Positions 28,575 through 51,473 of a stretch of DNA of 64,000 nucleotides are shown here, piece by piece. The position numbers and the translations under genes are program-made. Numbering within the stretch: the first letter of the stretch is position 1; each line of letters begins with the position of its first letter. Location of the stretch: NCBI GenBank assembly GCA_963833985.1, contig CAWIAD010000002.1, positions 4,288,001 through 4,352,000 on the forward strand, read 5' to 3'. The notes under the pieces were generated by a model that was not told where the DNA came from, searched no databases, and saw only the letters and a list, made by a program, of their open reading frames with translations. The DNA comes from an uncultured Planctomycetaceae bacterium. GTDB lineage: Bacteria > Planctomycetota > Planctomycetia > Isosphaerales > Isosphaeraceae.

Positions 28575-29882
28575 TTACTGGTTGATGAACGAATCCTGGT
28601 CCACGGTGAGCTGCTTGTACGGCAGGGGGAGCCGGGTGCCCGCCGGGGTGATGATCTTGGAATAGACGGTGCCGTCGATCGTGTTGTTGATGAACCGGAC
28701 CGAGCCGTCGCAGAAGCCGTAGTTGCTGCCCTGCGGGTGGCCGCTGTTGACCATGGGGAAGGTGCCCTTGATGGTCAGGACCGTGCCGTAGCCGATGTTC
28801 TCGTCGTCGCCCTGCTTGTTGGCATACTGCCAGGCGGGGATGTCAATCAGGGGAGTGTAGTTCGCCGCGGTGCCGAAGGTGTTCACGCAGATGCCCGAGC
28901 CCGGCCCGCAGACGTCATCCGAAGCGATGAACATGCAGAAGTTCGGGTACGGGACGGCCCAGCTCGTGGGGAAGCCCCCGGAGTAAGGCACGCCGGTGGA
29001 GTAGCCCACCAGGGTGCTCTCGCCCAGCAGGATGGTCGAGCCAGTGCCGTCGACGATCGAGCTGAGCGTCGTCTTGTTGGCGCCCCATTGCGGCGAGCGT
29101 CCGTTCATCGAGGCCGGGATGTTCGTGGCGTCAGTGGGGAACTGGTTGTCATATACCGAGTTCAGGAACATGACGCCCATCTTCGTACCCACGCCCTGGT
29201 CGAAGACGGGGCTGGGGGGCGTGCCGCCCGGGTCCCAGGTCAGGGCGCTGCCCGAGCCGCCACCGCTGGGGCCGGCCAGTCCGTCGGCCTTGAAACCGTT
29301 CCACTGCAAGGGCGCCGCGGGGAAGCGGACGAAGCCGCCGTTGACCACGTAGCTGAGGTTGCCCTCGTTCGTGGTGAAGTTGTTGTCGTCCGGGCAGCGG
29401 AGGATGCCCAGCGACTTCTGCAAGAGGCCGTTGGGAATCGTCGAGTTGTCATTCGCGGCGAGGTTGATCGTCGCCCAGAACGGCAGGTGCTTGGTCCAGT
29501 TGTTGGCGATGTCCTGCTGGTCCAGGTCACTGGCGATGTCGATCATCCAGCTATACGCCGCGCGGTTGTAGACGTATTGCGTGATGCCGGTGGTGGAGGT
29601 GCCCTGGGCCTGGTACAGCACGGAGGCCGTGGGAATCGGGTTGGTGAGGGTGGCCGGATCCTCGAAGAACGTGCCGGCGGCCGGGTAGGCGTTCTTGCGG
29701 CCGGCGAACGAGTTCAGCGCCAGGACGAGCTGGCGCATGTTGTTCTGGCACTGGGCGCGGCGGCCTGCTTCGCGGGCCGAGTTGATGGCGGGCAAGAGGA
29801 GCCCGACGAGCACGCCGATGATGCTGATCACCACCAGCAGCTCGATGAGGGTGAAACCTCGGCGAAGACGACGGCGAGTCAT
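28575..29882 (-). CDS. DUF1559-family prepilin-type protein
   Basis: [19 protein letters not shown]...[35 protein letters not shown], and H-X9-DG ([16 protein letters not shown]). Confidence 0.92.
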
Positions 29883-30087
29883 GAGCGGTCCTTTCCAGAG
29901 TTTGACGACGGGAACAGTTCGAATTCTATCAGCGTATCGCCGCTACAGACAATACGTTCACGTATCGGGCCTTGGGACGCGCTGCGCCCACCGGCTACGC
30001 GGGCGTGGCTCCAGGTCATGGCTCGCAGGCACCTCCCAGGGTGAGCTCAGCAGGGTGCAATCCACCGTTTCCAGGGACGATGCATGC

Positions 30088-30117
30088 GGTGGGTTGCGCT
30101 CCGCTGACCCACCCTAC
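30088..30117 (-). repeat. GTAG-type REP-like palindrome
   Basis: GTAGGGTGGGTCAGCG-GAG-CGCAACCCACC on the minus strand. Confidence 0.7.
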
Positions 30118-30179
30118 GAAAGAGCACCACAATCAGGGCCACTCGGTGACTCTTCGAATCCCTCCTCGGAAAAGCGTCA

Positions 30180-33100
30180 TTATTCGATGGTCTGGCGGTA
30201 GACGACCGCCGGCCGGAAGCTGCCGATGACGTTCGGGTCGTAGCCGGTGAGCTGGAGCCGGTCAACCAGGAAGAAGCCGCGGTAGCGGGTGGTCTGCCCG
30301 ACCGACGAGCCGACCTCCGCCCCGAGGATGTCATACGCCAGGGCCATGGCCGGAGTCCCCGCGGCGACGCCCGCCATCTGCAAGTCGCCCTGCCGCTTCA
30401 CCTCGAAGAAGCCGACGGTGATCCAGACCGCGTACTGGTGCGTGCGCACGGTGGTCAGGTTCATCGCCTTCTGCAACATCTCGGTGCGGAAGTAGGGGTG
30501 CTGCCTCTGGTCGATGACCGCCGGAGCGTAGTTCGGCCCGCCCGGCTTCAAGTTCACGCTCGTGCTCATTCCCAGGTACGGTTTCGGCGTGGGTGGAGTG
30601 GCGACAGGCGGCGAGGGCGCTGTGCCGCTTGGCACCCAGAACAGGTTCACGACGCCGTCATTGACAGTGAAGGATGTGCCGCCAACCAGGAACTGCGGCA
30701 GGCCGCCGGTCTGCACAGGTGCCGTGACGGGCACCAGGTTGTTGATGTACGGGTCACCGGTCTCGCTGGCGTTGCTGACCGCGCCGCCCGAGGCTGGGAT
30801 GCCGTCCGGCGGCTGGAACAACCGCCGCACCGGGATCGCCGGCGGCACCTGGAGCTGCGTCATCGGGTTGCTCTGCGGAGTGCTGCCCGCCGGAGTCGCA
30901 CTCAGGTTGGTCGCGTAGCCCTGGTACAGCGACGGGTTCCGTACGCCGGGGTCGCCGATGTAATTGCCCGTGTAGCCGGTGGGCGGCCACGCGGGCGTGG
31001 GCGGAGTGGTCGGCGTGGGCGGGTCTGTGTAGAGCGACGGTGGCAACTGCGCTGGCCGCATGACGGTGTAGTTGATGTCCGGGTAAGACAGCGAATGGAA
31101 CGGCCGGTCGGCCGGGATCGCGAAGGTGTTCCCGGCGATCGCCGGATAGGCCGGCGAGGTTTGCACGCTGTAGCTCTGCCCGGTGGCGCCGCTGCCATGT
31201 CCGAAGAGGAAGCCCGAGCCGCCGTGCCGCAGCGACAGGAACTGCGCGAACGAGGCCTTCATCCGGTTACCGAGCAATCCCGAAAGCCGGTCATTGGCCA
31301 GTACGCCAATGTTGTTCATGGCGTAGGCCGACGCCGGCGCACCGGTGGCCAGGGTGGATGTGACCACGAGCGGGAGCGGCGATGTGCCGGCAGCCAGAGG
31401 TAGGGGCGATGTCGTGGAGGTCCAGGACGCCCCGGTGATCCCGTTCGGGAAAACCATGTTCTGAAGCTGGTCGAAGCTCAGGAGCTGCTGGTTGAAGTTC
31501 TGGTCCTGGCTGCCGAAGACGCTGAAGAAGACCTCCTCGTCGATGATCAGGTTCAGGTTGACGAGCCCCGGCTTGATGTCCTGCCGCAGCCAGTCGAAGT
31601 TCGTGCCCTGGGCCACCGGGCTGATGGCGCCGATCATCTGGTTGGGCACCTCGAAGAACTCGAACATCTTGAACCAGCCGTCGCCCGTGGCATCCCCGAA
31701 GAGCGAGGTGGTCGCGGACGTCGGCGAGGCCCCGGTGTAGAAGAACTTGTCCACCAGGTACGGGAAGCTATGGGGCGAGAGCGGGCTTGTCGAGCTCACT
31801 CCGCTCACGGTGTTGAACGCGTTGGAGGCCGTCGCCGGCGCAGCGGGCAGCTTCTTGAGAGTGGCCGCCGTGACGGTGCTGGGCAACGGCGTGACCAGGC
31901 TGAAGGTGCTGGTCACGTTCGCGGACGAGGGGGCGAACTCGGCGAACTGCTTGGTGAACAGACCCGGCGGGCAGCCGGGCACCATCAGGAGCTCGGCCAC
32001 ACTCGTGAAGTCGCGGTCGTTGAACGGGAACAGGTCCCACGGCTCCAGCAGATAGGGCGGCGTCGAGGGCGGACCGGCTGTCCCGAGGAACGCGCCCCCC
32101 GCGGTGTTCGCCGCATCATTGGGCCCGCCCAGGGTATGGTAGAAGTACTTTGCCGGCCCGGTGATCTGCAGACCTGCCGCCTGGCCGTAATTGGCCACCG
32201 TGGTGGTCGGCACGGCGATCTGCTCGGTGTACCCGTAACGGGGATCGAGTGCGCCGGCCACACCAGGCATGGGCACGGCATGACCCCCGCGGAACGGCTG
32301 GAGCCGCTGGTACGACATGATGTAGTTGGTGCCGACCGTGGGAGGAGTGCCCGGCTTGCCTCCGCTCTCAACGAACGGAAACCTCATGGCGTCCACGACG
32401 ATCATCGGGTTGGTGGCCGAGACGGCCGCGAACGGGTTGGCCGGTCGGCGCAGGCAGACCCAGAAAAACATGCCATTACCGGAGCCGGGGCCTGGCCCAA
32501 GACCGTTGAGGATCTTCTTCGGGTAGGTGGTCGGCGGTGTGCCGCCGTAAGTGGGAGGCGGCAGCACGCCGGCCGGAACGGTGCCGGAAGGGACGCCGGC
32601 ACTCACCGGGTCCCACGTGGCGTTGAAGGTGTAGGTCGGTGTGTAGGGCTTGTTCTCCGCGTTCGCGGGCATCGGGTTGCCGAAGGTCGTGAAATAGTAG
32701 GGAGCCAGCGGGTTGTCGGGACCGGGTGCAGCGAAGTAGCCGACGAAGAGGTTTGCCAGGGTCGCGGCGCCGCCCGGCGGCATGGCCTGCGGCAGCGGGA
32801 AGAGCACCGGGTCGCCCGCGGGCGTCAGCGGGTTGGCGTAGGTCGGGTTGATCGCGCCAGCCGCGGCCGAAGAGAGCGGTAGCAGGCCGTAGTAGTTGCC
32901 GCCCGGCTGCAACATGCCCGTGATGGGGTCGGGCCGGCTCTGTGGCAGGTCATCGGTGAAGATCAGGTCCCAGCAGCCGCCGTCCCACGGCGTGGCGGCA
33001 CCGGTGGACTGGAAGCCGGCCAGGTCCAGCACGCTGGCGTTGTTCGAGCCGTTGCCCAGGCCCGCCACTGTGGTCGTGCCCAGCTCGGGCGAGGTGAGCA

Positions 33101-36100
33101 CGTTCACCAGCTCGATGAAGAACCGGTTGGTGGTCGGCGCACTGGCGAACGAGTAGGCCATCACCTCGTTGATGGCGATCGGGTTGTATTCCATGCCGTA
33201 CTGGTCGAGCGGGATATCGGTGGCCGCCTTCGAGACCCTCAGCACCGGGAACGGGCTGGCGCCGGCCGTGCCCGGACGCAGGAACACGTCCGGGTTCTGC
33301 CAGTGCGTCATCGCCGCGTCGGTGTCGCGGAAGTCGACGATGTTGATCACGTACTGGCTGAGCTGCGCCAGCTCCTCGGCCGTGTCCACGGCCCGCGGGG
33401 GCAGAATGGACTTGAGCGTCTGGTACGTGTCGCTGATCCACTTCTGCCGCACCGGCTCGTTGGGATCGTTCGAGACCGGCAGCGGATAATTGAGGTTGAT
33501 CTTCTTGTCGCGCTGGGCCAGCGACATCGTGGGCGAGGGCACGGGGTTGGTGGGGTTGGGCAACGCCGTGATGTTCGGGTTCGTCGAGGCCGGAACGTTG
33601 AGCGTGGTGAACCCGGCGTCGGCATTCTTGGTGAACCGGGCGTTGTAGGCGAAGGCGAGGCCGCCCGGATTGTCATTCGTCCAGGTGAAGTTGTTCGTCT
33701 CCCACGAGTCCAGCGCGAACAGCCTGCGGCGGCGCTGGCCGTCCACCCGGTTGGTGAGGCTCACCGGCGCCAGCGACGACAGCCGTGAGACCAGGGAGGC
33801 GCCGTCCATGTCCTGCTGGCGGTACAGCCACTCCAGGTCGCCGTAGCCGAACGGGGCGTCAAGCTGGGCATTGGGAGTGTACAGGTTCATCTCGTCGGCC
33901 TCGTTCAGGCCATCGGAGTTCGCCTTGCCATTGACGCTGGCGTCATAGGTGGGGAACTTGGCCGGCAGATACGTCAAGCCCGCGCTGGCATTCGCGTCGA
34001 TGGGTACGCCGCCGGCGCGCTGGGGGTTGAAGATGCCGCCGCTGGTCGGGTAGTTCAGGTTCGGGAACCGCTGGCTCTCGAAGCCGTGCAGGGGGTTGCT
34101 GTCGCTGGGGCCATTGATTCCCGCGCCCATGTTCTGCACCAGCATGGTGGGGTAGACCTCGCCGCTGGTCCAGGGGAAAGTCACCGAGCCGGGCGCGGCA
34201 CCGCCGGAGGCCTCGACCTGGCCCGGCAGCCCCGGCGGGCGGAAGTAGCTGGAGTATTCGACGCGTCCGAACATGTCGGCACCGGCATTCGGGCCGGGCT
34301 TGGTGTTCACTCCGTCCCACTGCACGATCGAGCCGGTACCGTTGATGTCGCCCGGCGTCACGTACCTCCGCAGCCGGTCCACCGGCAACAGGTAGGCACC
34401 GGCTGGGTCCAGGAAGTCGAGGTCGCCCACCTCGCCCTGGCGGTTGCCCGTGTTCACCGGCGGATAGGGATCGAACGAGTTGTTGTTGTCGTCCGCGGCG
34501 TCGCGGGGGATGCCGTTGATCATGTCGGTCACGTCCATCGAGTACCCGGCGCGGATGCGGTTGTTATAGGTCGGCATCACCAGGTTGAACGGCGCCCCGC
34601 CACTGGGGTTGGGCACCGGGTAGCCGTGCACCGACTGCTGCTCGCCCCAGCGGCCGGCCACCGCCGGGGTCAGGCGGAGCACGCCGGCCGTCGGCGGATT
34701 GGCGCCGTTCATGTCCACGTCGCCGACGTCGGCAATGCTGTTGGGCATGAAGTAGGGCACGCCGCCCATGACCACGAGGTTGTTGTCGCCGTTGACCTGA
34801 CCTGTGAGGTCGGGCACGCCGGCGTTCACGGCGGGCGTTCCCGGGTTGATCTGCGGCCGCGTGCCGGCGAGCAGGTTGCGGAGCTGCGTCAACCGGACGT
34901 CAAGCCCGCCGCTATCAACCTGGCTGTTGCCGAGGTACGGGCCCGGGTAAATCTGGGGGGTGTAAGCCGTGGCGAAGTCGGTGCTGCGGTAGCCGTTTTG
35001 CAAGGCATATGTGGGGTCGATCTCGCTCACCGAGTTCCCCAGGTGCTGCGCGTGCGAGGCGCCGTTGCCCCCCCGGCCGCCGGCCAGGTTGCCGGCCGTG
35101 TTCAGCGGAATCCGGCCGTTCAGGCCGATGACCATGAACGCGAAGAGCGGCTTGTAAAGCTGGCCCTGGGCGTTCCGCCGCGCCGGGTAGCCGAGGTCCA
35201 GCCAGACCGAGTCGGTGAGCCCGTCGCCGTCGTTGTCCACGTCGTAGTTGATCTTGCCATTTGGGCCGGGAGTGAGGTCGGGGAAGGCGTTCGAGTCGTG
35301 CCCGTCCGCGGCCACCGGCCGCAGGATCCGGGACATGTCGAAGGTCCAGCCGTTGGTCACGTCGCGTGACCAGTCGTTCGTGGTGTTGGCCAGGTCGTAG
35401 CGAATGGCCGCCGGACGGTGAAACGAGGGAATGATGACCGAGCCGTCGGCGCTCTGCATGGCCAGGAACCAGTTCTCCAGGTCCACCGCGTCGTAATCCT
35501 CGTCCATCCCCTGGAGGTTCGGGTTCAGTCCGTTGTACCGGAAGTTGCCGTGCACCGCATTCGTGGTCATGCCCGGGCCGTTGAAGGCGTGCAGCCAGCG
35601 GCCGTCAAGCACGAACTGGGCCACGCCGTTGAGCGTGCCGCCGGACGCGGCGACCAGGTACTGGCCGGGAAGCTGCGTCACGTAGCCGGCCGGGTAGCTG
35701 GGCGTCACCGTTGGGTTGTTCAGGGTCGTCGCCGCATCGGTGGCGGGGATGCTCACCGTCAGGGTGCGATAGCCATTGCCACCGGGAACATAGCCGCTGT
35801 CGGCCAGCACCTCCAAGGTCTGGCTGACCACCCCCGTGCCGCCGTTGGCCAGGGTGCCGTTGTACGAAACGCGCAGCACCCAGCGGTTGAAGTTGTAGCC
35901 GTAGAAGGTGGAATCGCCGGCGGGGATGTTGGTGGTCAGAACATAGAGGGTGCCGGCTCCCGCCGTCACGCCCGTGATGTAGAAGTAGGAATCGCCATGG
36001 GGCGCCATGAACGCGCCGTCGGGACGGGAGGCGAGGTAACCGTTGAAGTGGCCGTCGTTGCCGTACATGTCGCGGGCCATGCTGTGCCCGCGGATCACCG

Positions 36101-36330
36101 AGCGGATATCGCTGGTGTCGCCGATGAGCTGCTCGAGCGCGTAATCCATGAGCTCGATCGCGCTGCGGCTGGTTCACCGATTGCGCAAAGCTGCGCGAGC
36201 TGATCCGCGACTGCCCCGTGAAGGTGGCGAAGGTGACGCCGATCACGGCCATGAGCGCCAGCACGCCGAGGATCAGGACCAGGACGATCCCCCGGCGCGG
36301 TCGCTGATATTGATTCGTCCTGGCCAGCAT
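30180..36330 (-). CDS. Giant PilX/GspK-like minor pilin, ~2050 aa (apparent 1-nt insertion near 36160)
   Basis: The N-terminus RRG|IVLVLILGVLALMAVIGVTF lacks Glu5 and lies in ORF 35605..36387. It joins the 1989-aa ORF. Contains DVDNDGDG and a C-terminal NLTTVRTHQYAVWITVGFFEV. Confidence 0.75.
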
Positions 36331-36397
36331 GATCAAGTCTCCGTGGCGTGCGTGTCGGGTGAGCTGAGCCCACCATCCCTCATGCAATGCTGGTAAT

Positions 36398-36418
36398 GGC
36401 GGGTTGCACCCGCCCTAC
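36398..36418 (-). repeat. GTAG-type REP-like palindrome overlapping a stop codon
   Basis: GTAG-GGCGGGT-GCA-ACCCGCC; its TAG is the stop codon at 36415-36417. Confidence 0.7.
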
Positions 36419-38631
36419 AGTTTATCTGTGAAATCCTGCCGGATCGTCAATGTCTTGATACGTTGATTGGTCGGGTCCGTGACGCGGATCTGAATCTGGA
36501 TGCCGCGCAAAGGCGCCGGGTAGGGCGGCGGATACGACGGATAGATGGGCGGCGAATACGGCGGGCCGGCCGGAAAGAACGGTGCCACGCTGCCGGCGGG
36601 GTACACGCCCGTGCCGGGCGCCTGGGTGTACTCGGTGGACCACGAATCCCAGACCCGCCGCAGTCGCACCACCGCCGGGTTGTTGTCGCCGATGTTGCCG
36701 TTGTAGTTCGGATACCCCGAGTAATAGCCTGGCACGACGGCCCCGAACTGGGCGTCGAACCGGTTGTCGTTCACCAGGGGGGGCATCCGCCCCTCGTGCG
36801 CGAGGGTCTGGTTCAGCAGGTCGTACTTGTTGGCGTTGATATAGGCATACGCGGGTGCGGCGTAGCCGTTCACCGGATCGTAGTTCCCCGCCAGGTACGG
36901 GAGCGCCAGGTTCGTTCCCAGGTACTGCGGCGAGAGGTTCTGGGTAAGCCGCGGGTCGTCGCCCCAGCCCAGGTCGGCATAGGCCCCCAGGCTGTTGTCA
37001 TAGGCCTTGATGTCGAAGCTGCGTACGCCGGTCATCACCAGGTCGTCTTCCCAGCTATACTGCGACCAGAGCGACGGCGGGTTGCCCCCCGTGAGCGGGA
37101 AGAAGACGCTCGGCGTGCCGAACAGGTCGTTGTACGGTTGCGGCGTGTTGCGGTAGACACCGGTCATGGCGGGCAAGGGCGTGCCGGCCGGCAGCGCCGC
37201 GTTGGCGAAGATGTAGCCCAGGCCGGTTGGCTGGGTCAGGTTGGTGTTGATCTGGTACGTCGGGTCAACCCAGAAAGGCGAGAGGGTTTCGCGCCAGGTG
37301 GGGAAGCCCCACCAGGTCTGGACATAACCGCTCTGGTTCGCCGGCACGGCCACGTTGTCGCCGGTATCCAGGGGGTTGTGGTTGAGGTTGTTCAGGTACC
37401 CCAGCGTGTTCCCCTCGTACGTGGCCGCAACCGGTGCCAGAGGCGTGCCGACGTTGACCTCCGGGTTCGGCGAGTGGATCCAGCCGTAAGCCGCCGTGGT
37501 CATCGATTGCGGCACGGAGTACGCCCCCGGGAAGACGAACGGGAACGCCATCATGGCCATGTGCGGTGGCGGCCACGGAAACCCCGTCGGTGCAACGCCT
37601 GGATAGTAGAGCAGCGTGTTGGCCACGTTGGTCGGACTGAGCACCGTCGGGTACAGGGTCGGGTAATAGTCGGGAACATTATCGCCGTTGAGGTCATCGC
37701 TCAGGCCGTCCGGCGTGCCGCCTCCTGTGCCCAGGTTGTAAAAATCGTCCGAGAACCGCTGGTAGGCGAACCGCTTCTCGCGGCTGGCCAGGTCGCCCAG
37801 CGTATTGAGAAGCACCGAATTGCCATGGAATGGCGCCCCGGTGCCGGAGGGCCGGGCCGAGAGGTCGTTGACCCCTTGCCAGCTTACCTGGTTGCCGGTC
37901 AGGTTCGCCGGGTTGCCGCCGAGCGCCGGCGGGAAGAACCCCGCGTTATTGAACGGAGCGTTCGGGTTCAGGTTGTTCACGGCCGGCTCGACCGTCGATT
38001 GCAATTCCGGCACGACCAGCAGCACGCGGCGGTAAAGGTTGCCGTTGCGCAGGAAGTAGATGATCTCGGCGTGGTCGCTGGTGATCGTGATCGGCTGCGG
38101 GGACTGGTTCGGGATGAAGCCGTTCACCGTGTTGTACGCCGACCGCACCCACATCCGCCCCGTGAACGGCTGGCCCGCGGGCGCCTTGGCGGTGAAGCGG
38201 ATGTAGTCGTCGGAGTCCTCTCCTTGCACGTCGGCAAACTCGTTCTCGCCGTACTCGCAGTAGCCCGGGTTGTTCTTCGGGTCGTTGGGCGGGGTCATCT
38301 TGCAGGTGATGCCGCTCAGGTCCGAGCGGACCGTCGAGAACAGCAGCCGGAGCTGGTTGTCCAGGTCCTGGTACACCTGCGCCGCGTTCAGTGCCCCGGT
38401 CGCCGCCTGGAAGATCTGCACGATCACCGTCATCATGAGCAGCAGGATTGCCAGGGTGACGAGCATCTCCACGAGGGTGACACCGCGCCGGGCTCGTGAG
38501 TGGCCAGCGGCCAGCGGCCAGCGGCGCGTGGTGGTCGAGGAAGCATCGGGGCGCCGTGCGGGAACTTGCGGCAGGTCGGAGGGCGCTGCGCCGTGGTCTC
38601 GGATCGCTTCAACGGGCTTGCCGCACCACAT
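36415..38631 (-). CDS. Large PilW/GspJ-like prepilin-type protein (~738 aa)
   Basis: RRG|VTLVEMLVTLAILLLMM, EIIYFLRNGNLYRR, and C-terminal LRGIQIQIRV. Confidence 0.8.
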   Translation of the reverse strand: MWCGKPVEAIRDHGAAPSDLPQVPARRPDASSTTTRRWPLAAGHSRARRGVTLVEMLVTLAILLLMMTVIVQIFQAATGALNAAQVYQDLDNQLRLLFSTVRSDLSGITCKMTPPNDPKNNPGYCEYGENEFADVQGEDSDDYIRFTAKAPAGQPFTGRMWVRSAYNTVNGFIPNQSPQPITITSDHAEIIYFLRNGNLYRRVLLVVPELQSTVEPAVNNLNPNAPFNNAGFFPPALGGNPANLTGNQVSWQGVNDLSARPSGTGAPFHGNSVLLNTLGDLASREKRFAYQRFSDDFYNLGTGGGTPDGLSDDLNGDNVPDYYPTLYPTVLSPTNVANTLLYYPGVAPTGFPWPPPHMAMMAFPFVFPGAYSVPQSMTTAAYGWIHSPNPEVNVGTPLAPVAATYEGNTLGYLNNLNHNPLDTGDNVAVPANQSGYVQTWWGFPTWRETLSPFWVDPTYQINTNLTQPTGLGYIFANAALPAGTPLPAMTGVYRNTPQPYNDLFGTPSVFFPLTGGNPPSLWSQYSWEDDLVMTGVRSFDIKAYDNSLGAYADLGWGDDPRLTQNLSPQYLGTNLALPYLAGNYDPVNGYAAPAYAYINANKYDLLNQTLAHEGRMPPLVNDNRFDAQFGAVVPGYYSGYPNYNGNIGDNNPAVVRLRRVWDSWSTEYTQAPGTGVYPAGSVAPFFPAGPPYSPPIYPSYPPPYPAPLRGIQIQIRVTDPTNQRIKTLTIRQDFTDKL

Positions 38632-38652
38632 GAATCTTCGCCTCCCGCGTAT

Positions 38653-38758
38653 CACTCGCTGTTCAGAGGAGCGGTGGGCCTCGCTTCCCTCGACCCACCC
38701 TACGACACTCGCTGTTCAGAGGAGCGGTGGGCCTCGGTTCGCTCGACCCACCCTACAA
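38653..38758 (-). repeat. Two tandem 53-bp units, each with a GTAG-REP palindrome
   Basis: cactcgctgttcagaggagcggtgggcctcg...ctcgacccaccctac twice. Confidence 0.9.
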
Positions 38759-41748: not shown

Positions 41749-43347
41749 TCACGACCCTCCGCTGCCGCCACTGGCCTGGCGGTTCTGGTTGCTGATGTCG
41801 TCGCGGCCGTACTCACGCAGTTGCTGGCTGGTGGGATCCACCTGCGTTGAGACCGGGATCTGCAACGAGTTGGTGAGCTGCCCGGGATCAAACGGGATCG
41901 CGTAGTTCTCATAGGTGATCAGGTCGTAAGCATTCAGAGCGGGGGGGCTGGGGAACACCGAGCTCGGGTACAGCAGGAAGACCCCAAGCTGCTGGTCGAA
42001 GCCGGAGGAGAGGATCAGCGGCTTGGAGAAGAACGCGCGGCGGTTCGGGAAGATGGTGCCGCGATCCCAGTAGTATGCGTAATTGCCGTTGTGGCTGACT
42101 GGCTCGGTAAGACGGTGGAAGAATGCCTCGAAGCCGACCACGCCCCCGCTGCCGCCTAACGACCCGGCCGTCCCCGTGAATGCGAGCGGGTACTGTGTGT
42201 TTTGCGCGGCCGCCCACCACGCCGGCGCCACCAGGAGCTGGTTCGGGTCGAACGGGTCCTGCTCGCGCGCCTCGAAGACCGTGCGATAGGGCGGGTTGAA
42301 GAGCTCGATGGGCGAGGAGACGGCCGGCGTCTGCGTGTAGTCCCAGTAGTCCACAACCTGCCCGCGCTGGGTGTCCGTATGGTACAGGAGCGGCCAGCGG
42401 AAGAACTGGATCGGCTGGCCCCAGGCGTCCACGAACTCGGGCAGGCCGTCGCCGTCGGTATCTCTCACCTCCTTGTCGCTGAAGTCGTCGCGGTTGAAGA
42501 ACGCGCCCAGGGGCCCGACGCCCTCGACCAGAATCGCATAGAGCGTTTCGGCCCGTGCCGTGTTGTGCTTGTGGGCGGCGAGGTTGGAGAGCACCTGCGA
42601 GTGATTGCCCGCGTTCACCCCCTCCTGCCATTCGTCGACCAGGCCGTTGCCGTCATTGTCCAGGCCGTCATAGCCGGTGGGCACGTAACCCAGGTTCTTG
42701 TACAGGCTGGCGGCCGCGAAATACGAGGCGCCGAAGATGCCGGTGCCCACGGTGTTGGAATAATTCCCGGCACCGTAGCCGGGCGTGAAGCCGGAGGGAG
42801 GGATGAGCGGGCCGGCCACCGAGTTGCCCAGCGGCAAGATGAAGTTGCCCAGTCCTTGCTGGTCGATCGTGGCGCCCGGGTAACCGGCCGCCGGGAAGGC
42901 AAAGTTGAGCGGGTAGCTGTAGGCCGTGGGGTTGAAGTTCTGCACGAAGAAGACATCCGGCATCTCGCTCTTGACGTAGTCGTACCAGGCGATCACCTGT
43001 GCCCTTGCCGCGGCCGAGCCGTACTGCGACTTGGGCCAGCCGAGCGGCTCCTGGTTGCCGTTGCCATCCGCATTCCCGATGTAGACCCCTGCCATGTAAT
43101 AATGCGCCGGGTTCGGGTCGGGCCGGGTCTGCAAGAGCGCGTCGAGCCGGTCATTCACGCCCGCTTCCAGCTTGGTGATGAGCGCCAGCGTGGCGTCCTC
43201 CTCGGCCCGCCTGCGGGCCTCGCCGCCCGCCACGAGCAGGAACGTGATGATGATGCCGATGATCACCATCACGACCAGCAGCTCGACGAGGGTGAACGCC
43301 GGGCACACGCCTGCGCGATACACGCTGGGCTCCCGCCGCTTCCTCAT
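41749..43347 (-). CDS. Large GspG-like prepilin-type protein (~532 aa)
   Basis: PA|FTLVELLVVMVIIG, DTDGDGLPEFVDAWGQPI, LILSSGFD, DDISN. Confidence 0.8.
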   Translation of the reverse strand: MRKRREPSVYRAGVCPAFTLVELLVVMVIIGIIITFLLVAGGEARRRAEEDATLALITKLEAGVNDRLDALLQTRPDPNPAHYYMAGVYIGNADGNGNQEPLGWPKSQYGSAAARAQVIAWYDYVKSEMPDVFFVQNFNPTAYSYPLNFAFPAAGYPGATIDQQGLGNFILPLGNSVAGPLIPPSGFTPGYGAGNYSNTVGTGIFGASYFAAASLYKNLGYVPTGYDGLDNDGNGLVDEWQEGVNAGNHSQVLSNLAAHKHNTARAETLYAILVEGVGPLGAFFNRDDFSDKEVRDTDGDGLPEFVDAWGQPIQFFRWPLLYHTDTQRGQVVDYWDYTQTPAVSSPIELFNPPYRTVFEAREQDPFDPNQLLVAPAWWAAAQNTQYPLAFTGTAGSLGGSGGVVGFEAFFHRLTEPVSHNGNYAYYWDRGTIFPNRRAFFSKPLILSSGFDQQLGVFLLYPSSVFPSPPALNAYDLITYENYAIPFDPGQLTNSLQIPVSTQVDPTSQQLREYGRDDISNQNRQASGGSGGS

Positions 43348-43446: not shown

Positions 43447-43449
43447 GCA

Positions 43450-44727
43450 TCAATCAAGCCGGCCGTTGTGGATATTGGTGATGTTGTCGCGCTTGCGCGT
43501 GCGGATCGTGGTATCGGTCGTGTTATGATAAACACTCATGTTTGTGTCGAGCGGCAACGGGTTGGAGACGTCCGGGTTGTACTGCCCGGCCACGCCGTAC
43601 TGACCATCCAGACCCGAGGAGATGATCTGGAAGCTCTGCGGGTTGTAAAATGTCGTGGCGCTGGTGACGGTGCCGGAGATCGGTGCCGAGGTCGTGCTGG
43701 TGTACGGGTTGGGCGCCGGCGAGAGGCAGACATTGTTCGCCACGGGAAACTTGACGAAGTAGCCCAGGTACGGGATAGAGCCATTCATGTCCACCTCCGC
43801 GTCCGGGGCCGTCGCGAAGTTCACGTCGTTGGGGTCGTAGCCGCCGTTGCCGTAGGCGCTGAAGTAGGCGTAGAAATTGATCTGGCCGTTGCCCAGCGTG
43901 TTGCCCAGCGAGTCGACGTAGCCGGGAATCTGGGGCAGGGTGAACGAGGTGTAAGGATTCGTCGGGTCGATCATCAGCCGGCCGGGGTTGAACTCGAAGA
44001 GCGGGGGCTGGCGGTTGCCGCTGTAGTTGGTGCTGCCGACGATGCTGTTGGTGAACGGATTGGTGGGGTCCTTGCCGAAGCCCGTGAGACCATAGCCGCT
44101 GTTGGTCTGGAGCGGCACACCACCCAGGAAGAAGACGAGGCACTCGTGCCCCTGGAGGATATAGGGAGCGTCCATCACCCCGTTGCCGTTGAAGTCGTAC
44201 CAGCGTCCTCCGGTAGGGATGGATCCGAAGTTGCCGGGATAGACGATCCCTTGCGTGTTGAAATTGACCCTGGGGAAGAACTTCCGCAGGGCAGAGATCG
44301 ACCGCTGCGCCAGTTGCCCGAGCGTGATATCGCCCACCGAGGTGCCCGCCGGAAGGTACGCTGTACTGTTCACGACGCTGTAGTCGCCGTTCTCAGCGAG
44401 GTAAACCCGGCTCGGCGGGTAGTCGCCGTACTGGCTCTTGAACTGCGCGAGCGCCTGGGCCATCTGGTTGATCTCGCCGCCCACGGCCGTATTCTTGGCC
44501 GACCGCAGGGCGGCGTTGATCGCCGGCAAGAGCAGGGCGATCAGCACCGCCAGGATGAGGATCACGACCAGCAGCTCCACCATGGTGAAGCCGCTTCTCC
44601 GTCGTGGTGATGCGATCGCACGCCGTGGGCGGGGAATAATGGGCAGTGGGCCGTGGGCCGTGGGCCGTGGCGGGAGACCACTGCCGGTGGCCCGAGAGTC
44701 GTCGATGGCCGTTTGCGGATTGCACAT
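43450..44727 (-). CDS. Large GspG/PulG-like prepilin-type protein (~425 aa)
   Basis: RSG|FTMVELLVVILILAVL, FKSQYGDYPP, FQIISSGLDGQYG, DNITN. Confidence 0.82.
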   Translation of the reverse strand: MCNPQTAIDDSRATGSGLPPRPTAHGPLPIIPRPRRAIASPRRRSGFTMVELLVVILILAVLIALLLPAINAALRSAKNTAVGGEINQMAQALAQFKSQYGDYPPSRVYLAENGDYSVVNSTAYLPAGTSVGDITLGQLAQRSISALRKFFPRVNFNTQGIVYPGNFGSIPTGGRWYDFNGNGVMDAPYILQGHECLVFFLGGVPLQTNSGYGLTGFGKDPTNPFTNSIVGSTNYSGNRQPPLFEFNPGRLMIDPTNPYTSFTLPQIPGYVDSLGNTLGNGQINFYAYFSAYGNGGYDPNDVNFATAPDAEVDMNGSIPYLGYFVKFPVANNVCLSPAPNPYTSTTSAPISGTVTSATTFYNPQSFQIISSGLDGQYGVAGQYNPDVSNPLPLDTNMSVYHNTTDTTIRTRKRDNITNIHNGRLD

Positions 44728-44793
44728 GTCACGCGGCTCCTCTGTATCCCTTTGGATGCGATGCGATCCCGTGGATTGATTGCCCAATGCCGC

Positions 44794-44901
44794 CTGCCTA
44801 CCGCCGCCCTGGTGGGCCTCGCCTTGCGGCTCGACCCACCCTACAAACTGCCTACCGCCGCCCTGGTGGGCCTCGCCTTGCGGCTCGACCCACCCTACAA
44901 A
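44794..44901 (-). repeat. Two perfect tandem 54-bp units, each with a GTAG-REP palindrome
   Basis: ctgcctaccgccgccctggtgggcctcgccttgcggctcgacccaccctacaaa twice. Confidence 0.92.
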
Positions 44902-44917
44902 GCTGCCCACTGCCGGA

Positions 44918-46159
44918 TCAGCCTGACAGCTTGGTGATGAGCGTGATCAGGGGCAGGAAGAGGGCGATCACGATGAAGCCGACGATGCCGCCCAGGACGA
45001 CGATCATGATCGGCTCGAGCAGGCTCACGAGCGACTCCACGGCCACTTCCACCTCTTCGTCGTAGTTGTCGGCAATCTTGTTGAGCATGGTGTCGAGCTC
45101 GCCGGTCTCCTCGCCGACGTCGATCATGTTGACCACGATGTCGTCGACGATGCGCGCCTTGCGCAGGGGCTGGGCGATGGTCTCGCCCTCGCGGATGCTC
45201 TCATAAATACGCGTGAACGCCCGCTCGAAGACCGCGTTGCCGGCGGTCTCCTTGACGATGTTCAGCGACTCGAGGATGGGCACGCCCGACTGCACCAGGG
45301 TGCCCAGGGTGCGCATCGTGCGCGCCACGGTGGACTTCTCGGCGATCGTCCCCATGACCGGTATCATGAGCAGGATCCGGTCGCAGACGTAGGCCCCCGT
45401 CTTGTTGCGGTATAATAACTTGATGAATACCCAGAACAGAAACGGAGTCAAGAAGACCACGTAGAAATACTTGATCAGGAAGTGGCTCGCATCGATGAGG
45501 ATGGTGGTCATGCGCGGCAGCGGGACGCCGAAATCTTTGAAGATCGATTCAAACTTGGGGATGATGTAATAAAGAATGAAGCCGACGATCGTGCAGGCGA
45601 CGAGGATGACCACGACCGGGTAGACCATGGCGCCCTTGATCTTCCGCTTCAGCGACTGGGCCTTTTCCTTGAAGTCGGCGAGCCGCTGGAGGATCGCCTC
45701 GAGGGCACCGCCGGCCTCGCCCGCCTTGATCATGTTGCAGTAGAGCCGGTCGAACGCCTTGGGGTGTTTCTGGAACGCCTCGGAGAGGGTCTGGCCGCTC
45801 TCGATGTCCTCGATCACGTCGCCCAGGGCGTTCTTGAGCACTCCGGGCTTCGACTGGCCTTCCAGGATCTTCAGGCTGCGGAGGATGGGCAGGCCGGCAT
45901 CCTGAAGCGTCGAGAGCTGGCGGGTGAAGGTGCAAAGCTGCTTGGTGGAGATCTTGCCGATCGTGAATGACTTCTTCTTCCGGCGGCCCCCCTTCTTGGC
46001 GGCCGACTTGCGGGTCTTCTTCGCCTTCTCAGAGATCTTGGTGACGAAGAAGCCCTTCTGGCGGATCAGTTGCTGGGCTTCTTCCTGGGTCGCGGCGTCG
46101 ATCGAGTCCTTGACCTCGCGCCCCGTGTGGTCCATCGCTTCATATTGAAAAGTCGGCAT
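44918..46159 (-). CDS. pilC: Type IV filament platform protein PilC/GspF
   Basis: FTRQLSTLQDAGLP, AGEAGGAL, GAMVYP, GEETGEL, LLEP. Confidence 0.93.
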   Translation of the reverse strand: MPTFQYEAMDHTGREVKDSIDAATQEEAQQLIRQKGFFVTKISEKAKKTRKSAAKKGGRRKKKSFTIGKISTKQLCTFTRQLSTLQDAGLPILRSLKILEGQSKPGVLKNALGDVIEDIESGQTLSEAFQKHPKAFDRLYCNMIKAGEAGGALEAILQRLADFKEKAQSLKRKIKGAMVYPVVVILVACTIVGFILYYIIPKFESIFKDFGVPLPRMTTILIDASHFLIKYFYVVFLTPFLFWVFIKLLYRNKTGAYVCDRILLMIPVMGTIAEKSTVARTMRTLGTLVQSGVPILESLNIVKETAGNAVFERAFTRIYESIREGETIAQPLRKARIVDDIVVNMIDVGEETGELDTMLNKIADNYDEEVEVAVESLVSLLEPIMIVVLGGIVGFIVIALFLPLITLITKLSG

Positions 46160-46208
46160 AAATGCTCTCCGTCAGGATGGAAAGGGGCCAGCGGCGCGTG
46201 CCTGGGGC

Positions 46209-47924
46209 TCAGATTTCCGTCATGGTTTCCCGGATGATCTCCTCGACGCTGGTGACCCCGCGATCGATGGCCTGGAGACCGGACTCGCGCAGGGTCCGCA
46301 TGCCGTACTTGCGGCAGGCGTTGCGGAACTCATCGAGTGAGACCTCGGAGACGACCATGTCGCGCAGGTTTTCGTTCATGATCGCCAGCTCGTAGATTCC
46401 CATCCGGCCCTTGTAGCCGGTGTTGTTGCACTTGTCGCAGCCCTTGCCATAGAACCACTTCTGGGCCGCGGCCTGCTCGGCGGTCAGCCCCAGCTCCATG
46501 ATCACCTCCTGGCTGGGGGTGAACTCGGTGCGGCAGAAGTTGCAGATCTTCCGCACCAGCCGCTGGGCCAGCATGGCCTCCACGGTGGCCGTGATGAGGA
46601 AGGTCGGCAGGCCCATGTCGCGCAGCCGGGTGATCGCCGAGGGGGCGTCGTTGGTGTGCAGCGTGGTGAAGACGATGTGGCCCGTGAGCGACGCCTGGAT
46701 CGAGATCTCGGCGGTCTCCAGGTCCCGCGTCTCGCCCACCAGGATCTTGTCCGGGTCCTGGCGGAGGATCGCCCGCAGGCAGTTGGCGAAGGTGACGCCG
46801 ATCTCGGGGTTGATCGGCACCTGCACGAGCCCCTCGATCTCGTACTCCACCGGCTCCTCGGTGGTGATGATCTTGTCCTCGATCTTGTTCAGCTCGTTGA
46901 GCGTGGCGTAGAGGGTGGTGGTCTTGCCCGACGACGTCGGCCCGGTCACCAAGATGATGCCGTTGGGCTTCATGATCACTTCCATCCACTTCGCCAGCGT
47001 GTCCTCGGGCATGCCCAGCTTGCGCAGGTCAAGCTGCACCACCGAGCGGTCGAGGATCCGCAACACCACGCTCTCGCCGAACATGGTGGGCAGGGTGGAG
47101 ACCCGGATGTCCACGTTGTTGCCGCCCAGGGCAAGCTGGATCTTGCCGTCCTGCGGCAGCCGGCGCTCGGCGATGTCAAGATTCGACATGACCTTGATGC
47201 GGCTGGCGATGGCCGGCGCCAGGTGCCGCGGGGGGGGCACTAGCTCGTAGAGGATGCCGTCCACCCGGTAGCGCATCTTGTATTCTTCCTCGAACGGCTC
47301 GAAGTGGATGTCCGAGGCCTTGTCCTTGATCGCCAGGAGCAGCACCATGTTCAGGAGCTTGCGCACCGGGGCCGCCTCGGCCATCTCCTCGATCGCCTCG
47401 AGGTCGATGGTGTTCTGGTTGCGGTTGGCCAGCTGCGCCAGGCCCTTGTCCTGCTCGATCTGCTTGACCACGTCCTGGATGGTCTCGTGGTGGCCGGCGT
47501 AGAGCCGCTCGATGGCCGACATCACGTCCGACTCGGACGCCACCGCCCCTTTGACCTCCACCCCCAGGAAGAGCCGCAGGCTGTCGATGGTCGAGGGGTT
47601 CTGGGGCTCGGCCATGGCCACCGTGACGCTCTTGTCCTTCTTGTTCTGCGAGACCGGCACCACCTTGTAGGCCGTGGCCATGCTCTCGTTGACCAGCTCG
47701 GTCATCTCGGCGGGAATGGTGGTGTCGGCGAGCTTGATCACCTTCATGCCGAGCTGCTCGCCGAGCGCCTTGAGCACCTGGTCTTCCTTCACCATCCCCA
47801 TGCGCACCGCGACCTTGCCCAGAAGCTCGGTGCCGGAGCGCTTCTGCTCCTCGAGCAGCTTCCAGAGGCCATCCTCGTCGAGGTAGCCCATGTCCACCAT
47901 GATCGTGCCGATGCGTCGCGCCAT
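46209..47924 (-). CDS. pilB: PilB/GspE-family assembly ATPase with MshEN-like N-terminus
   Basis: ASDIHFEP, PQDG, GPTSSGKTT, LRQDPD, LTGH, TLHTND, and four Zn-binding Cys. Confidence 0.9.
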   Translation of the reverse strand: MARRIGTIMVDMGYLDEDGLWKLLEEQKRSGTELLGKVAVRMGMVKEDQVLKALGEQLGMKVIKLADTTIPAEMTELVNESMATAYKVVPVSQNKKDKSVTVAMAEPQNPSTIDSLRLFLGVEVKGAVASESDVMSAIERLYAGHHETIQDVVKQIEQDKGLAQLANRNQNTIDLEAIEEMAEAAPVRKLLNMVLLLAIKDKASDIHFEPFEEEYKMRYRVDGILYELVPPPRHLAPAIASRIKVMSNLDIAERRLPQDGKIQLALGGNNVDIRVSTLPTMFGESVVLRILDRSVVQLDLRKLGMPEDTLAKWMEVIMKPNGIILVTGPTSSGKTTTLYATLNELNKIEDKIITTEEPVEYEIEGLVQVPINPEIGVTFANCLRAILRQDPDKILVGETRDLETAEISIQASLTGHIVFTTLHTNDAPSAITRLRDMGLPTFLITATVEAMLAQRLVRKICNFCRTEFTPSQEVIMELGLTAEQAAAQKWFYGKGCDKCNNTGYKGRMGIYELAIMNENLRDMVVSEVSLDEFRNACRKYGMRTLRESGLQAIDRGVTSVEEIIRETMTEI

Positions 47925-48291
47925 GCCTGTTCGTCCCGGTCTGGTCTGTCGCTGGAACCGAACCCTCCGCGCAGGGACCAAGCCGTTTCCCGCGCGGGGT
48001 TCGCTGCGTGCCGGTTTGTTGTGAGTGCAAGAAATTCAGAAAACGGACGGCGGAATCCAGAACGAACCCCGCCCTGACGGAGAATCAACCCGGAACAGGA
48101 CCGAGGTCGCGTCCCGCCGAAGCCAGCTCGAAGGCCCGATGCGGCCGGCCCGGCCGGGCCTCGCCCGCGGGGCAGGCCTGCCAGGCCCGGATGACGGCAT
48201 TCAATGATTCAATGACGATAATTTCTTAGACATCCTTACATTCGAATGACGGATCAGCGGGAGCACCGTGACAGCGGGCCGCGCGGGGGGC

Positions 48292-49404
48292 TCATTTCTC
48301 CTCTTCCTCCTCGCTCGCCTCGTCCTCGAAGATGCCCTTCTTGGCGTTCTCGATGCGTTCACGCAGATCGTTCGGCTTGCGGGACTTGAACATCACCTCG
48401 GTCTCCTCCACCAGGCCCTGGCGCCAGAGGTTGAAGAGGCTGTCGTCGAGGAGGATCATGCCGTGCTTGCGGCCGGTCTGGATGGACGAATCGATACGGT
48501 ACGTCTTGTTCTCGCGGATCAGGTTGGAGATCGCCGGCGTGACGACGAGCATCTCGTAGGCGGCCACCAGCCCCTTGGGTTTGCGTGGCAAGAGGGCCTG
48601 GGCCAGAATGCCGATGATCGCCACCGACAGCTGGGTGCGGATCTGGTCCTGCTGCTCCTTGGGGAAGACGTCGATGATCCGGTTGACGGTGCCTTCCGCC
48701 GAGTTGGTGTGCAGGGTGCCGAAGACGATGTGGCCCGTCTCGGCGGCGGTGATGGCCGCCTGGATGGTGGCCAGGTCGCGCATCTCACCCACCAGGATGA
48801 TGTCCGGGTCCATCCGCAGGGCGCGGCGGATCGCCTCGGGGAAGTCGGGCACATCAATGCCGATCTCGCGCTGGTTCACAAGCGACTTGTTGTGCTTGTG
48901 GAAGTACTCGATCGGATCCTCGATGGTGATGATGTGCCGGTCCATGTTGTTGTTGATCCAGTTGATCATCGAGGCCAGGCTGGTCGTCTTGCCCGACCCT
49001 GTCGGCCCGGTGACCAGGATCAGCCCGCGTGGACGCGTGATCAGGTTTCCGATCACCGCCGGCAGGCCAAGCTGCTCGAACGTCAGGAACTCGTTGGGGA
49101 TCCGCCGCAGCACCAGCCCCACGTTGCCGCGCTGCTTGAAGACCGCGACGCGGAACCGCGCCATCTCGCCAAAGGCGAAGCCGAAGTCGGTACCCCCCAC
49201 CTCCTGCAACTCTTGCTGGCAACGCTCCGGCGTGATGCTCTTCATGAGCGCCACGGTGTCCGGCGGCTCCAGGACCTTCGTCGCCAGTGGGCGCATGTGG
49301 CCATGCAACCGCACCACCGGCTGCTGGCCAACCGTCAGGTGCAGGTCACTGGCTTTCTGAGTGCAGACCGTTTGCAGCAGCTTGTCGATGAGCAACGTGC
49401 CCAT
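48292..49404 (-). CDS. pilT: Type IV pilus retraction ATPase PilT
   Basis: ASDLHL, GPTGSGKTT, TIEDPIEY, ALRMDPD, AAETGH, AISNLIRE. Confidence 0.93.
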   Translation of the reverse strand: MGTLLIDKLLQTVCTQKASDLHLTVGQQPVVRLHGHMRPLATKVLEPPDTVALMKSITPERCQQELQEVGGTDFGFAFGEMARFRVAVFKQRGNVGLVLRRIPNEFLTFEQLGLPAVIGNLITRPRGLILVTGPTGSGKTTSLASMINWINNNMDRHIITIEDPIEYFHKHNKSLVNQREIGIDVPDFPEAIRRALRMDPDIILVGEMRDLATIQAAITAAETGHIVFGTLHTNSAEGTVNRIIDVFPKEQQDQIRTQLSVAIIGILAQALLPRKPKGLVAAYEMLVVTPAISNLIRENKTYRIDSSIQTGRKHGMILLDDSLFNLWRQGLVEETEVMFKSRKPNDLRERIENAKKGIFEDEASEEEEEK

Positions 49405-49735
49405 TGCCGTCACAGACCTCCCACGGAGAGATGATTCCAGCCCACGCCCGCCGACTCGTGCCGATCATCCGGGGGTTGACTTTGTCCTGGAAACCAGGTG
49501 TCCACCGTATTCCAGAGCCTCGCGTTGGAGTTACGGAATGAGCTGTGCGGCTCACCTCACCCCCATTATCGGGCCCCCGAGTGATCAGATCAAGCTGATG
49601 GCGGTCCACAACTTCGGCGCACTTCACCCGTTCCAAACCAGAGCGGACCGGTGCGGCCTTCCTGGTCCGCCCTTTCCCGGCCGGGGGGGTTGGCACCCAC
49701 ACCGGCCGGTCATGGCCATACATGGAACTCCCGTC

Positions 49736-51473
49736 TCACTTCTTCGCGGTCAGCAGCCCCTCGCTGATCATGTCGTGCTGGGTGATCCGCAAGACCTCGT
49801 CAAGCGTCGTCTGGCCCTTGATCGCCTTCACGATCCCGTCCTCGAACAATGTGCCGCATCCCCTGCTTGCGAGCCACTCTACGAATAGACTGGGTGGACT
49901 CCCCCTTGAACGTCATCTCGCGCACCTGCGTGGTCAGGGTCATCAGCTCGAAGATGCCCATGCGGCCCCGATAGCCCTTCTTGTTGCAGTTGTTGCACCC
50001 CTTGCCCTTCATGAAGTTGGCCTTCTTGGCCAGCTCCGGCCGCAACCCCAAACTTGCCAGAATATGTGCCGGGGGCTCGTACCGCACCTTGCACTTGGGG
50101 CAAACTTTACGTACCAACCGTTGAGCCATGATCGCAAGCACCGAGCTGGCGACCAGGAATGGCTGGATCCCGATATCCACCAGACGTGTAATGGCACTGG
50201 GCGCATCGTTCGTGTGAAGCGTACTGAAAACCAGGTGTCCCGTCAGTGAGGCCTGGATTGCGGTCTCAGCCGTCTCCAGATCCCGGATTTCGCCGACCAG
50301 GAGGATGTTCGGGTTCTGCCGCAGCATGGCCCGGATGATCCGCGCGAAGGTCATGCCAATCTTCGCCTTCACCTCACATTGGTTCACACCTGGAAGATAG
50401 TACTCGACCGGGTCCTCGGCCGTGATGATCTTCACGTCCGGGCGATTCAGCTCGTTGAGCGCGGCGTACAGCGTGGTCGTCTTGCCCGAGCCGGTCGGCC
50501 CCGTCACCAGCAAGATCCCGTTCGGCCGCTTGACCATGGTCTTGAACCGTGCGAAATCATCGTCGGCGAACCCCAGGTCCTGGAGGCCCACCTTGATGTT
50601 CTCACGGTCCAGGATCCGCATCACCACCGACTGCCCATGCGTGGTTGGTAGAATGCTGACACGCAGGTCGATATCCTTGCCGGCGACCAAGATCTTGATC
50701 CGCCCGTCCTGCGGCCGGCGTTTCTCGGCAATATCGATCGAGCCCATGATTTTCAGGCGGCTGACGATGGCACCGAGCAGGCGGCGGGGTGCCGAGTCAC
50801 GCTCCATGAGCACGCCGTCGATGCGGTAACGGATCCGCACGCGGTCGGCGAAAGGCTCGATATGAATGTCGGAGGCGCGCATGGTGACCGCTTCCTGGAT
50901 GATCAGGTGCACCAGCTTGATGACCGGTGCGTCGCCCTCTTCCAGGGTGTTGGTCGTCGCGGATTTGCCGGTCGCACCGCCGTCCTCGGAGAAATCGATG
51001 GCCGTGTCGGTGAATTCCTGGAGCATCGAGTCGACCGATTCGGTCTCGCCACTGCTGGCCCCATAGTATTTATTGATCGCCTCGACGATGGCCTCCTTGG
51101 GCGCGAGCGCGACCTCGATCTCGCGATTGAGCACGAACCGCAGCTTCTCGATGGTCTCGAAGCCGAGCGGGTCGTGCATGATCACCTTGATCGAGCCGTT
51201 CCCCTGTGCCAGGGGCATGACGATATTCTCGCGGGCCAACGACTCGGGAACCAGCTCGATGACCGAGGCCGGGATCTCGATCTCGCGGAGCTCGACAAAC
51301 GGCAGCCCGTGCTGCTCGGCCTTGGCCTTCATGATGTCGTCGGCCTCGGCATATCCCAGCTTCACCAGGGAATCCTCGACCGATCCGCCCGCGCGCTGGG
51401 CTTCCTTGAGTTGATCGGGCCCGATGACGCCCCGCCGGATCAAGATGTCCGACCAGTCACGAGTCTTTGCCAT
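49736..51473 (-). CDS. pilB: Second PilB/GspE-family ATPase (apparent 1-nt insertion near 49855)
   Basis: GPTGSGKTT, TAEDPVEY, LVGEIRD. The C-terminus TLFEDGIVKAIKGQTTLDEVLRIT is in a shifted frame. Confidence 0.9.

Follow-up and report, generated by a model that had tools for sequence, protein, structure and literature searches.

The 64,000-nt window analysed here (contig CAWIAD010000002.1 of an uncultured Planctomycetaceae bacterium, positions 4,288,001 to 4,352,000) carries a gene cluster for a type IV filament machine that is conserved among planctomycetes: its motors, its platform and seven pilins of unusual size. The cluster occupies the minus strand from 51,473 to 28,575 and comprises eleven genes: pilB1, pilT, pilB2 and pilC, then seven prepilin genes. 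Judging from sequence matches and gene lengths, it is the orthologue of Plim_0401-0410 of Planctopirus limnophila, and published transposon data mark that relative's matching genes as indispensable. Thus, the machine is likely a vital envelope transport route and not an optional hair. Its apparent essentiality, which is not visible from the sequence of the window alone, appears to be the main point. Type IVa pili (T4aP), and type IV filament systems generally, are as a rule dispensable, and the apparent essentiality would surprise specialists. The features of the locus are listed below; the letters G, H, I, J and K refer to gene position and are supported by the COG assignments of the P. limnophila orthologues (aa, amino acids).

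49736..51473, minus: pilB1, extension-type ATPase of about 578 aa, with T2SSE and MshEN domains
48292..49413, minus: pilT, retraction ATPase of 373 aa (TIGR01420, AISNLIRE motif)
46209..47924, minus: pilB2, extension-type ATPase of 571 aa with the MshEN cyclic di-GMP motif
44918..46159, minus: pilC/gspF, platform protein of 413 aa with two T2SSF domains
44794..44901: two tandem 54-nt REP-like copies of family D16 in the pilC/G1 gap
43450..44724, minus: G1, GspG-like pilin, candidate main shaft subunit, start codon uncertain
41749..43344, minus: G2, second GspG-like pilin, with N_methyl
40268..41745, minus: H/FimT-position pilin, signal and body in different frames
38775..40271, minus: I/PilV-position pilin, weak TIGR02523 PilV match
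38653..38758: two tandem 53-nt REP-like copies of family D17 in the I/J gap
36415..38655, minus: J/PilW-position pilin, start codon uncertain
30180..36330, minus: K-position giant pilin, lacking the glutamate at position 5 (E5)
28575..29882, minus: operon-type DUF1559 prepilin (PF07596, H-X9-DG)

In PMC10632474, four of the genes Plim_0410-0401 are assigned to type II secretion and the other six are called phylum-specific; the operon is flagged as secretion-related without a mechanism. The COG labels from Plim_0410 to Plim_0401 (PilB, none, PilB, PulF, PulG, PulG, FimT, PilV, PilW, unknown) give the same gene order and labels as in the window. The suggestion of an earlier note on this DNA, that this is a candidate undescribed system, is therefore not supported, although that paper neither interprets the operon as a filament machine nor connects it with the PilM cluster and the secretin discussed below. 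Relative to the Plim operon, K of the window is longer (about 2035 vs 1568 aa, mature), the subunits are larger and the DUF1559 gene lies inside the operon. Since the published insertion indices are fractions of the form n/(length-1), gene lengths can be recovered from them. We obtained three candidate lengths per gene and compared these with the start-to-stop lengths of the locus of a named relative, P. hydrillae (L175), for all genes except Plim_0402 (index 0) and pilB1 (outside L175). In 8/8 cases a candidate equals the L175 length, in the right order: 370, 570, 419 and 352 aa for Plim_0409, 0408, 0407 and 0406, and 370, 360, 468 and 1599 aa for Plim_0405, 0404, 0403 and 0401. By BLAST, eight of the nine L175 proteins match those of the window (PilT, PilB2 and PilC at 76%, 61% and 64% identity; G1 at E 2e-25, G2 at 2e-14, I at 7e-10, J at 9e-19 and K at 8e-12), and L175 H has no BLAST match to the window H. 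The P. hydrillae DUF1559 orthologue has been relocated out of the operon; it is 377 aa long, the length derived for Plim_0304.

PMC10632474 uses cut-offs of 0.013 and 0.022. Its source data give insertion indices of 0.0006, 0, 0.0028, 0.0009 and 0.0027 for Plim_0401-0405 (K, J, I, H and G2) and of 0.0038, 0.0056, 0.0041, 0.0225 and 0.0041 for Plim_0406-0410 (G1, pilC, pilB2, pilT and pilB1); the flanking genes have indices of 0.128 and 0.27. On these published values both pilB genes, pilC and six pilin genes are in the essential range in P. limnophila, and pilT alone is borderline (0.0225, with 25 insertions tolerated). The essential-gene labels of Fig. S3 of PMC10632474 likewise include all of Plim_0401-0410 except Plim_0409. 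Because insertions are tolerated in pilT, between pilB1 and the remaining genes, simple polarity is argued against; and because insertions in the intervening pilT survive and those in either pilB do not, the two extension ATPases would be separately needed. The seventh pilin, identified by label and size as Plim_0304, is also in the essential range (0.0044). Mutants were selected on modified PYGV plates (PMC10632474). Also in the essential list of Fig. S3 are Plim_0854 and Plim_2231 (ExeA-like ATPases) and Plim_1856 (301 aa, PilE label).

Further parts are encoded elsewhere. No secretin, PilM or A24-peptidase was identified inside the window, and all genome-wide family matches lie outside it. 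An 834-aa PilM, probably a PilN fusion, is encoded together with a 1586-aa secretin and two unannotated proteins of 615 and 679 aa at C2:4,705,736-4,717,693 of the window genome (G000; L227:737-12694), as the earlier note had anticipated in suggesting that secretin and PilM be sought outside the locus. This is the single PilM of the genome, with a family score of 166 (cut-off 133); the two genes after it have no family match. The 1586-aa protein has a Secretin domain and a weak STN-like domain, scores 93 on TIGR02515 (cut-off 284) and was found, in a strict first look, in 29/29 family genomes and 44/121 class genomes. The genome encodes three secretins, and a prepilin peptidase at G000:C2:2847318. 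P. limnophila has counterparts that match by label and size: PilM Plim_0076 (749 aa), Plim_0077 (579 aa), Plim_0078 (707 aa) and the TPR-PulD protein Plim_0641 (1566 aa). All four are in the Fig. S3 list, with indices of 0.0062, 0.016, 0.011 and 0.0019, respectively (PMC10632474). Three other pilQ genes, which can be deleted together (PMC11958385), have indices of 0.109-0.146 and serve as a control.

A strict prepilin scan found no small pilin inside the window. An orphan 133-aa PilA/PilE-like pilin is encoded 12 kb beyond its left edge (L231:5977-6375). It recurs at 53-87% identity in 16 other genomes, where the gene is often duplicated in tandem; among the matches listed it occurs in at least 15 of 29 family genomes and at least 1 of 91 others. 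This protein may be an optional thin-pilus subunit that uses the machine. Two separate clusters also encode small pilins. One (L228; G000:C2:5406593-5418307) is a compact cluster resembling type II secretion systems (T2SS) and type IV pili (T4P), with pilin genes of 127-198 aa, its own ATPase, GspF, a PilO/GspM-like gene and a 585-aa secretin. In the other (G000:C2:1816424-1826840), four DUF1559 genes and one small pilin gene accompany several GspF-like genes and an ATPase that lacks its N-terminal domain.

All seven pilin genes of the operon encode a class III signal (G/A^F/I/V followed by a hydrophobic stretch), and E5 is present in six of the seven proteins, K being the exception. The mature proteins are 379 aa (G1, from 44,589), 515 aa (G2, from 43,296), about 473 aa (H, from 41,688), 482 aa (I, from 40,223), 688 aa (J, from 38,481), about 2035 aa (K, from 36,288) and 426 aa (DUF1559), the H and K values being arithmetic across a frame change. 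For comparison, the GspG-K precursors of E. coli are 125-327 aa. The pilin bodies are rich in N, T, P, G and Y (summed fraction 0.35-0.42 vs 0.22-0.24 in the motor and platform proteins). The earlier note had described all eleven genes in this order on one strand, precursor sizes close to these mature lengths, the N/T/P/G/Y-rich bodies and the lack of a small pilin, secretin, PilM or peptidase in the window, and each of these points was borne out.

The predicted structure of G1 (pLDDT 89) is closest to the T2SS pseudopilins EpsG and PulG, with a modest Z. G2 matches G1 by profile (probability 99.6), and the N-terminal 60 columns of J align with E. coli GspJ (probability 79.5). No profile match was obtained between K and E. 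coli GspK. Pfam T2SSK was above its cut-off in one of seven K-position proteins scanned, the compact homologue of L126; a second was weak, and there was no T2SSK match among the 22 members of set A2. Three K homologues have weak lamin-tail-domain matches. Acidic loops of the DxDxDG type occur in the bodies of G1, G2, H and K (4/7 pilins); we take these to be possible calcium sites. The last gene encodes a DUF1559 prepilin (PF07596 111.6, cut-off 23.3; C-terminal H-X9-DG motif 34.3, cut-off 19). In a quick tree the operon-type DUF1559 proteins form their own clade (13 rows, SH-aLRT 100), apart from 48 other paralogues of this genome, which has 95 DUF1559 matches and at least 74 strict prepilin motifs in all. 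In the same-genus genome G004 the DUF1559 gene is directly followed by another H-like pilin gene (L028:3778-5058).

PilT scores 445 bits on TIGR01420, above the cut-off of 319, and both PilB ATPases have a Walker A motif and two CxxC motifs. TIGR02538 is the best model for the extension ATPases, yet they score 621-637, below its cut-off of 676 (PilB2 621; the intact G004 orthologue of pilB1 628, and the cut piece in the window 605). GspE scores on TIGR02533 are 598-620 (PilB2 598), all below 630. Only PilB2 passes the MshEN cyclic di-GMP motif model NF053729 (41.9, cut-off 38). The earlier note had also proposed an ATPase phylogeny. A quick tree that included six outside references places PilB1 and PilB2 each in a phylum-wide clade of its own (23 rows, SH-aLRT 85, and 25 rows, SH-aLRT 100, respectively), neither of which joins GspE+XcpR or the A. 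baumannii PilB. On this tree, the two ATPases date back to the origin of the phylum. Other sites in the genome (L229:1054-2439, C2:2556404, C2:4967071-4970208 and C1:3277193) encode an orphan PilC and several orphan PilB-/PilT-like ATPases.

The host genome is 10.2 Mb and 96% complete, and its closest named relatives are Isosphaeraceae. A K homologue was identified in 55/61 genomes, and exactly one PilC match at E<=1e-110 in 118 of the 121 genomes of the class Planctomycetia, across which the layout is conserved. Gene order is kept in 12 other class-level loci, those fetched by K or PilB2, all of which include pilT. Across relatives, mature G1 is 264-431 aa (76/79 rows, three cut rows left out) and mature G2 is 286-589 aa (69/72 rows, three broken rows left out); complete K proteins (22 aligned) range from 1544 to 2605 aa. 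Relocated subunits are retained (L238-L246). J is at another site in 5/5 genomes searched, four of which lack it at the locus, and G2 is found in 3/3 genomes of genus g21, though the locus of G033 lacks it; in G033 and G261 it is a tandem pair. At E<=1e-12, G2 was not found in two genomes from outside the class (2/2). The ATPase pair itself is retained in other classes, in some of them alongside a K of 867-1613 aa and in some alongside pilins of normal size. In families f22 and f43 (L129, L131, L133) the genes after the pair encode pilins of 117-186 aa, then a last pilin of 531-563 aa, which has PilX_N in L129 and L131; L133 lacks pilT between the ATPases. Pilin gigantism is not a phylum-wide trait. 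Records titled 'Candidatus Kuenenia stuttgartiensis' or 'Alcaligenaceae' (L081-L083, L114) encode PilT 85-86% or 73% identical to that of the window, in the Planctomycetia layout; these titles may be wrong.

Three genes of the operon contain a single-base indel relative to the intact locus of G004: an insertion in pilB1 near 49,850, a deletion in H near 41,550 and an insertion in K near 36,155, where the orthologue is an intact 2002 aa. It is due to these that the sizes of H and K require a frame change. They are probably assembly errors, because ftsK in the same window is likewise split into two frames (a part with four transmembrane segments and a motor part, 19443-21739, minus strand) and 13 of 67 DUF1559-type genes in the genome, judged by eye, are broken in the same way (8/61 caught by the N-terminal pattern, plus 5/6 further ones among 13 others). 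The intact rpoB and rpoC count against this explanation, and with the three indels would fit a locus that is decaying in this genome. We regard decay as very improbable, given that ftsK is essential in P. limnophila (index 0.0016) and that the frames of pilB1, H and K contain no stops beyond the indels.

The cluster belongs to the type IV filament superfamily but falls outside the definitions of the T2SS, the canonical T4aP and the Verru_Chthon cassette. It has the ATPase, platform and class III pilins of the generic superfamily model in PMC6668835, and the peptidase and secretin that the superfamily requires are present in the genome. As in T4aP, there is a PilT and, in trans, a PilM above cut-off, the MshEN motif on one PilB and an STN-like domain on the secretin. 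Unlike T4aP, the system has two non-redundant extension ATPases, GspG-like shaft candidates, no small PilA-type major pilin in the locus and a 1586-aa secretin far below the PilQ cut-off, and is apparently essential. The periplasmic PilA-N/PilA-C pilus of Geobacter is a T4aP-type machine with PilT that has been reported as a secretion piston; its pilin is a small two-chain one, and it is not known to be essential. T2SS-like are the F-G-H-I-J-K order, the G1 model, the K without E5 and the T2SSK domain of a K homologue. Unlike in the T2SS, where PilT is said to have been lost (PMC6668835), pilT is in the operon. PilM would take the place of GspL, the subunits are several times larger than E. 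coli GspG-K, and the ATPases are below the GspE cut-off and outside the GspE+XcpR clade. The earlier note had proposed a hybrid machine with a very large tip complex. Both points are supported: T4aP-type PilT and PilM combine with a T2SS-like G-G-H-I-J-K series, and such a machine is characteristic of the phylum.

The analogy to Verru_Chthon A-D drawn in that note fared less well. Large H-I-J-K-like pilins in a bacterium of the Planctomycetes-Verrucomicrobia-Chlamydiae group are shared with the Verru_Chthon and Akkermansia Amuc_1098-1102 systems, and it is the Amuc_1101 model that gives the PilM of the window genome its highest score (212 bits, cut-off 650). All of these scores are far below cut-off: among the Verru_Chthon models (TIGR02596-02600 set) B reaches 18 (cut-off 51), C 20 (256) and D 22 (70), cassette A has no match, and the Amuc_1098 model reaches 77 against 750. 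Nor is a stalk or holdfast supported, since Isosphaeraceae are described as stalk-free (PMC5352709) and stalk fibres as 6 nm (PMC5394234). Of the proposed retractility the presence of PilT stands; as a key feature it is not supported, pilT being the one gene of the P. limnophila operon that tolerates insertions. Planctomycetes are not mentioned in the main text of PMC6668835. Beyond the papers cited here we found no published characterisation of the system; this search left subscription journals mostly uncovered, and one may exist.

With confidence that is evenly balanced, we favour a reading in which this essential T4aP/T2SS hybrid is a housekeeping piston that pushes folded envelope proteins through the giant secretin, T2SS-style. 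We favour it because, in the P. limnophila data, growth on modified PYGV (presumably a peptone-yeast-glucose medium) requires extension, a complete set of tip subunits and one particular secretin, and retraction only in part, and because of the T2SS likeness of G1 (closest to EpsG/PulG) and of the K homologue with T2SSK. Prepilins would be processed by the unlinked peptidase, and H, I, J and K would assemble into a tip of some 400 kDa. Below this tip, on PilC, G1 and G2 would be added by the two extension ATPases, which could not substitute for each other, and the unlinked PilM cluster would connect the platform with the 1586-aa secretin. PilT would speed retraction without being strictly needed, and the dozens of other DUF1559 prepilins would be optional subunits.

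A different vital job, import of nutrients or macromolecules into the periplasm by a surface retractile pilus, seems to us rather unlikely. The filament would then be the 12-nm fibre that rises from large crateriform structures, which join both membranes, and that binds dextran (PMC5394234). PilT and PilM are T4aP parts, subunits of 260-590 aa would give a thicker fibre than usual, the 95 DUF1559 matches could supply variable binding subunits, and periplasm-spanning structures of planctomycetes have been likened to T4P machines, their genes unnamed (PMC8303584). Import needs retraction, yet pilT takes 25 insertions; the medium used for selection was simple, and polymer uptake should be dispensable on modified PYGV plates. 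In addition, the ~400 kDa tip would need to pass the secretin, and we found no proteomics link of these genes to fibres in the papers that could be searched. An essential mechanical role, in which the machine, as a tether of the press-stud kind or as a motor, would hold the two membranes and give them their shape, possibly in FtsZ-free budding, is improbable. Crateriform structures do fasten the inner membrane to the wall, at ~104 per cell (PMC5394234), the whole trans-envelope set is depleted of insertions in the published data, and the ATPase pair appears as old as the phylum; but both ATPases and the full series of pilins would be superfluous in a static tether, and the core also occurs in the phylum's other classes, in some of them with pilins of normal size.

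Essentiality could also be indirect, an ordinary optional pilus that, when broken, poisons the cell as its abundant prepilins, dozens of them, accumulate in the inner membrane. With at least 74 strict prepilin motifs in the genome, loss of any part would look lethal, and no prepilin-peptidase label (COG1989, PulO) was found in the essential-gene sheet of PMC10632474. Against this, loss of single pilins, G1 and G2 included, is also in the lethal range in the published data, and single-copy retention of PilC, at up to 94% identity, fits a housekeeping role; we think toxicity quite improbable.

Whichever function is vital, the machine is a candidate, by analogy with published descriptions, for the large crateriform structures, with their press-stud membrane links and 12-nm dextran-binding fibres. 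These structures, the fibres and the route of macromolecule uptake are left uncharacterised in PMC5394234, and no molecular assignment of any of them was found in the literature searched. We tentatively consider it possible that the machine is the large crateriform structure itself: a vital two-way conduit composed of the giant secretin (1500-1600 aa), the PilM cluster, two different extension ATPases and a 12-nm filament whose giant subunits are GspG-like. Such a conduit would export envelope proteins and pull in macromolecules via interchangeable DUF1559 subunits and PilT. If true, this would be a type IV filament system required for life that stands intermediate between T4aP and T2SS. The crateriform question thereby gains a named gene list (Plim_0401-0410, 0304, 0076-0078 and 0641) in a genetically tractable planctomycete, in which every recognisable part except PilT is, in the published data, in or near the essential range. 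Contributed here are the demonstration of orthology from gene lengths, the finding that the seventh pilin, the PilM cluster and the secretin also have essential-range values (with the deletable secretins as a control), the evidence that subunits moved out of the operon are kept, and the dating of the two ATPases. New questions are why both extension ATPases are needed and what role the 2000-residue tip subunit has.

Other genes of the window include one for a PMT_2-type membrane glycosyltransferase (53539-55683, plus strand), 2 kb from the operon start, and one that fuses TPR repeats to an AIR-synthase-related domain (5730-7466, minus strand). A second DUF1559 gene is frameshifted (17427-18375, plus strand), and a YicC-like gene (22659-23660, minus strand) matches 72 of 120 positions of the C-terminal model; both may reflect assembly indels.

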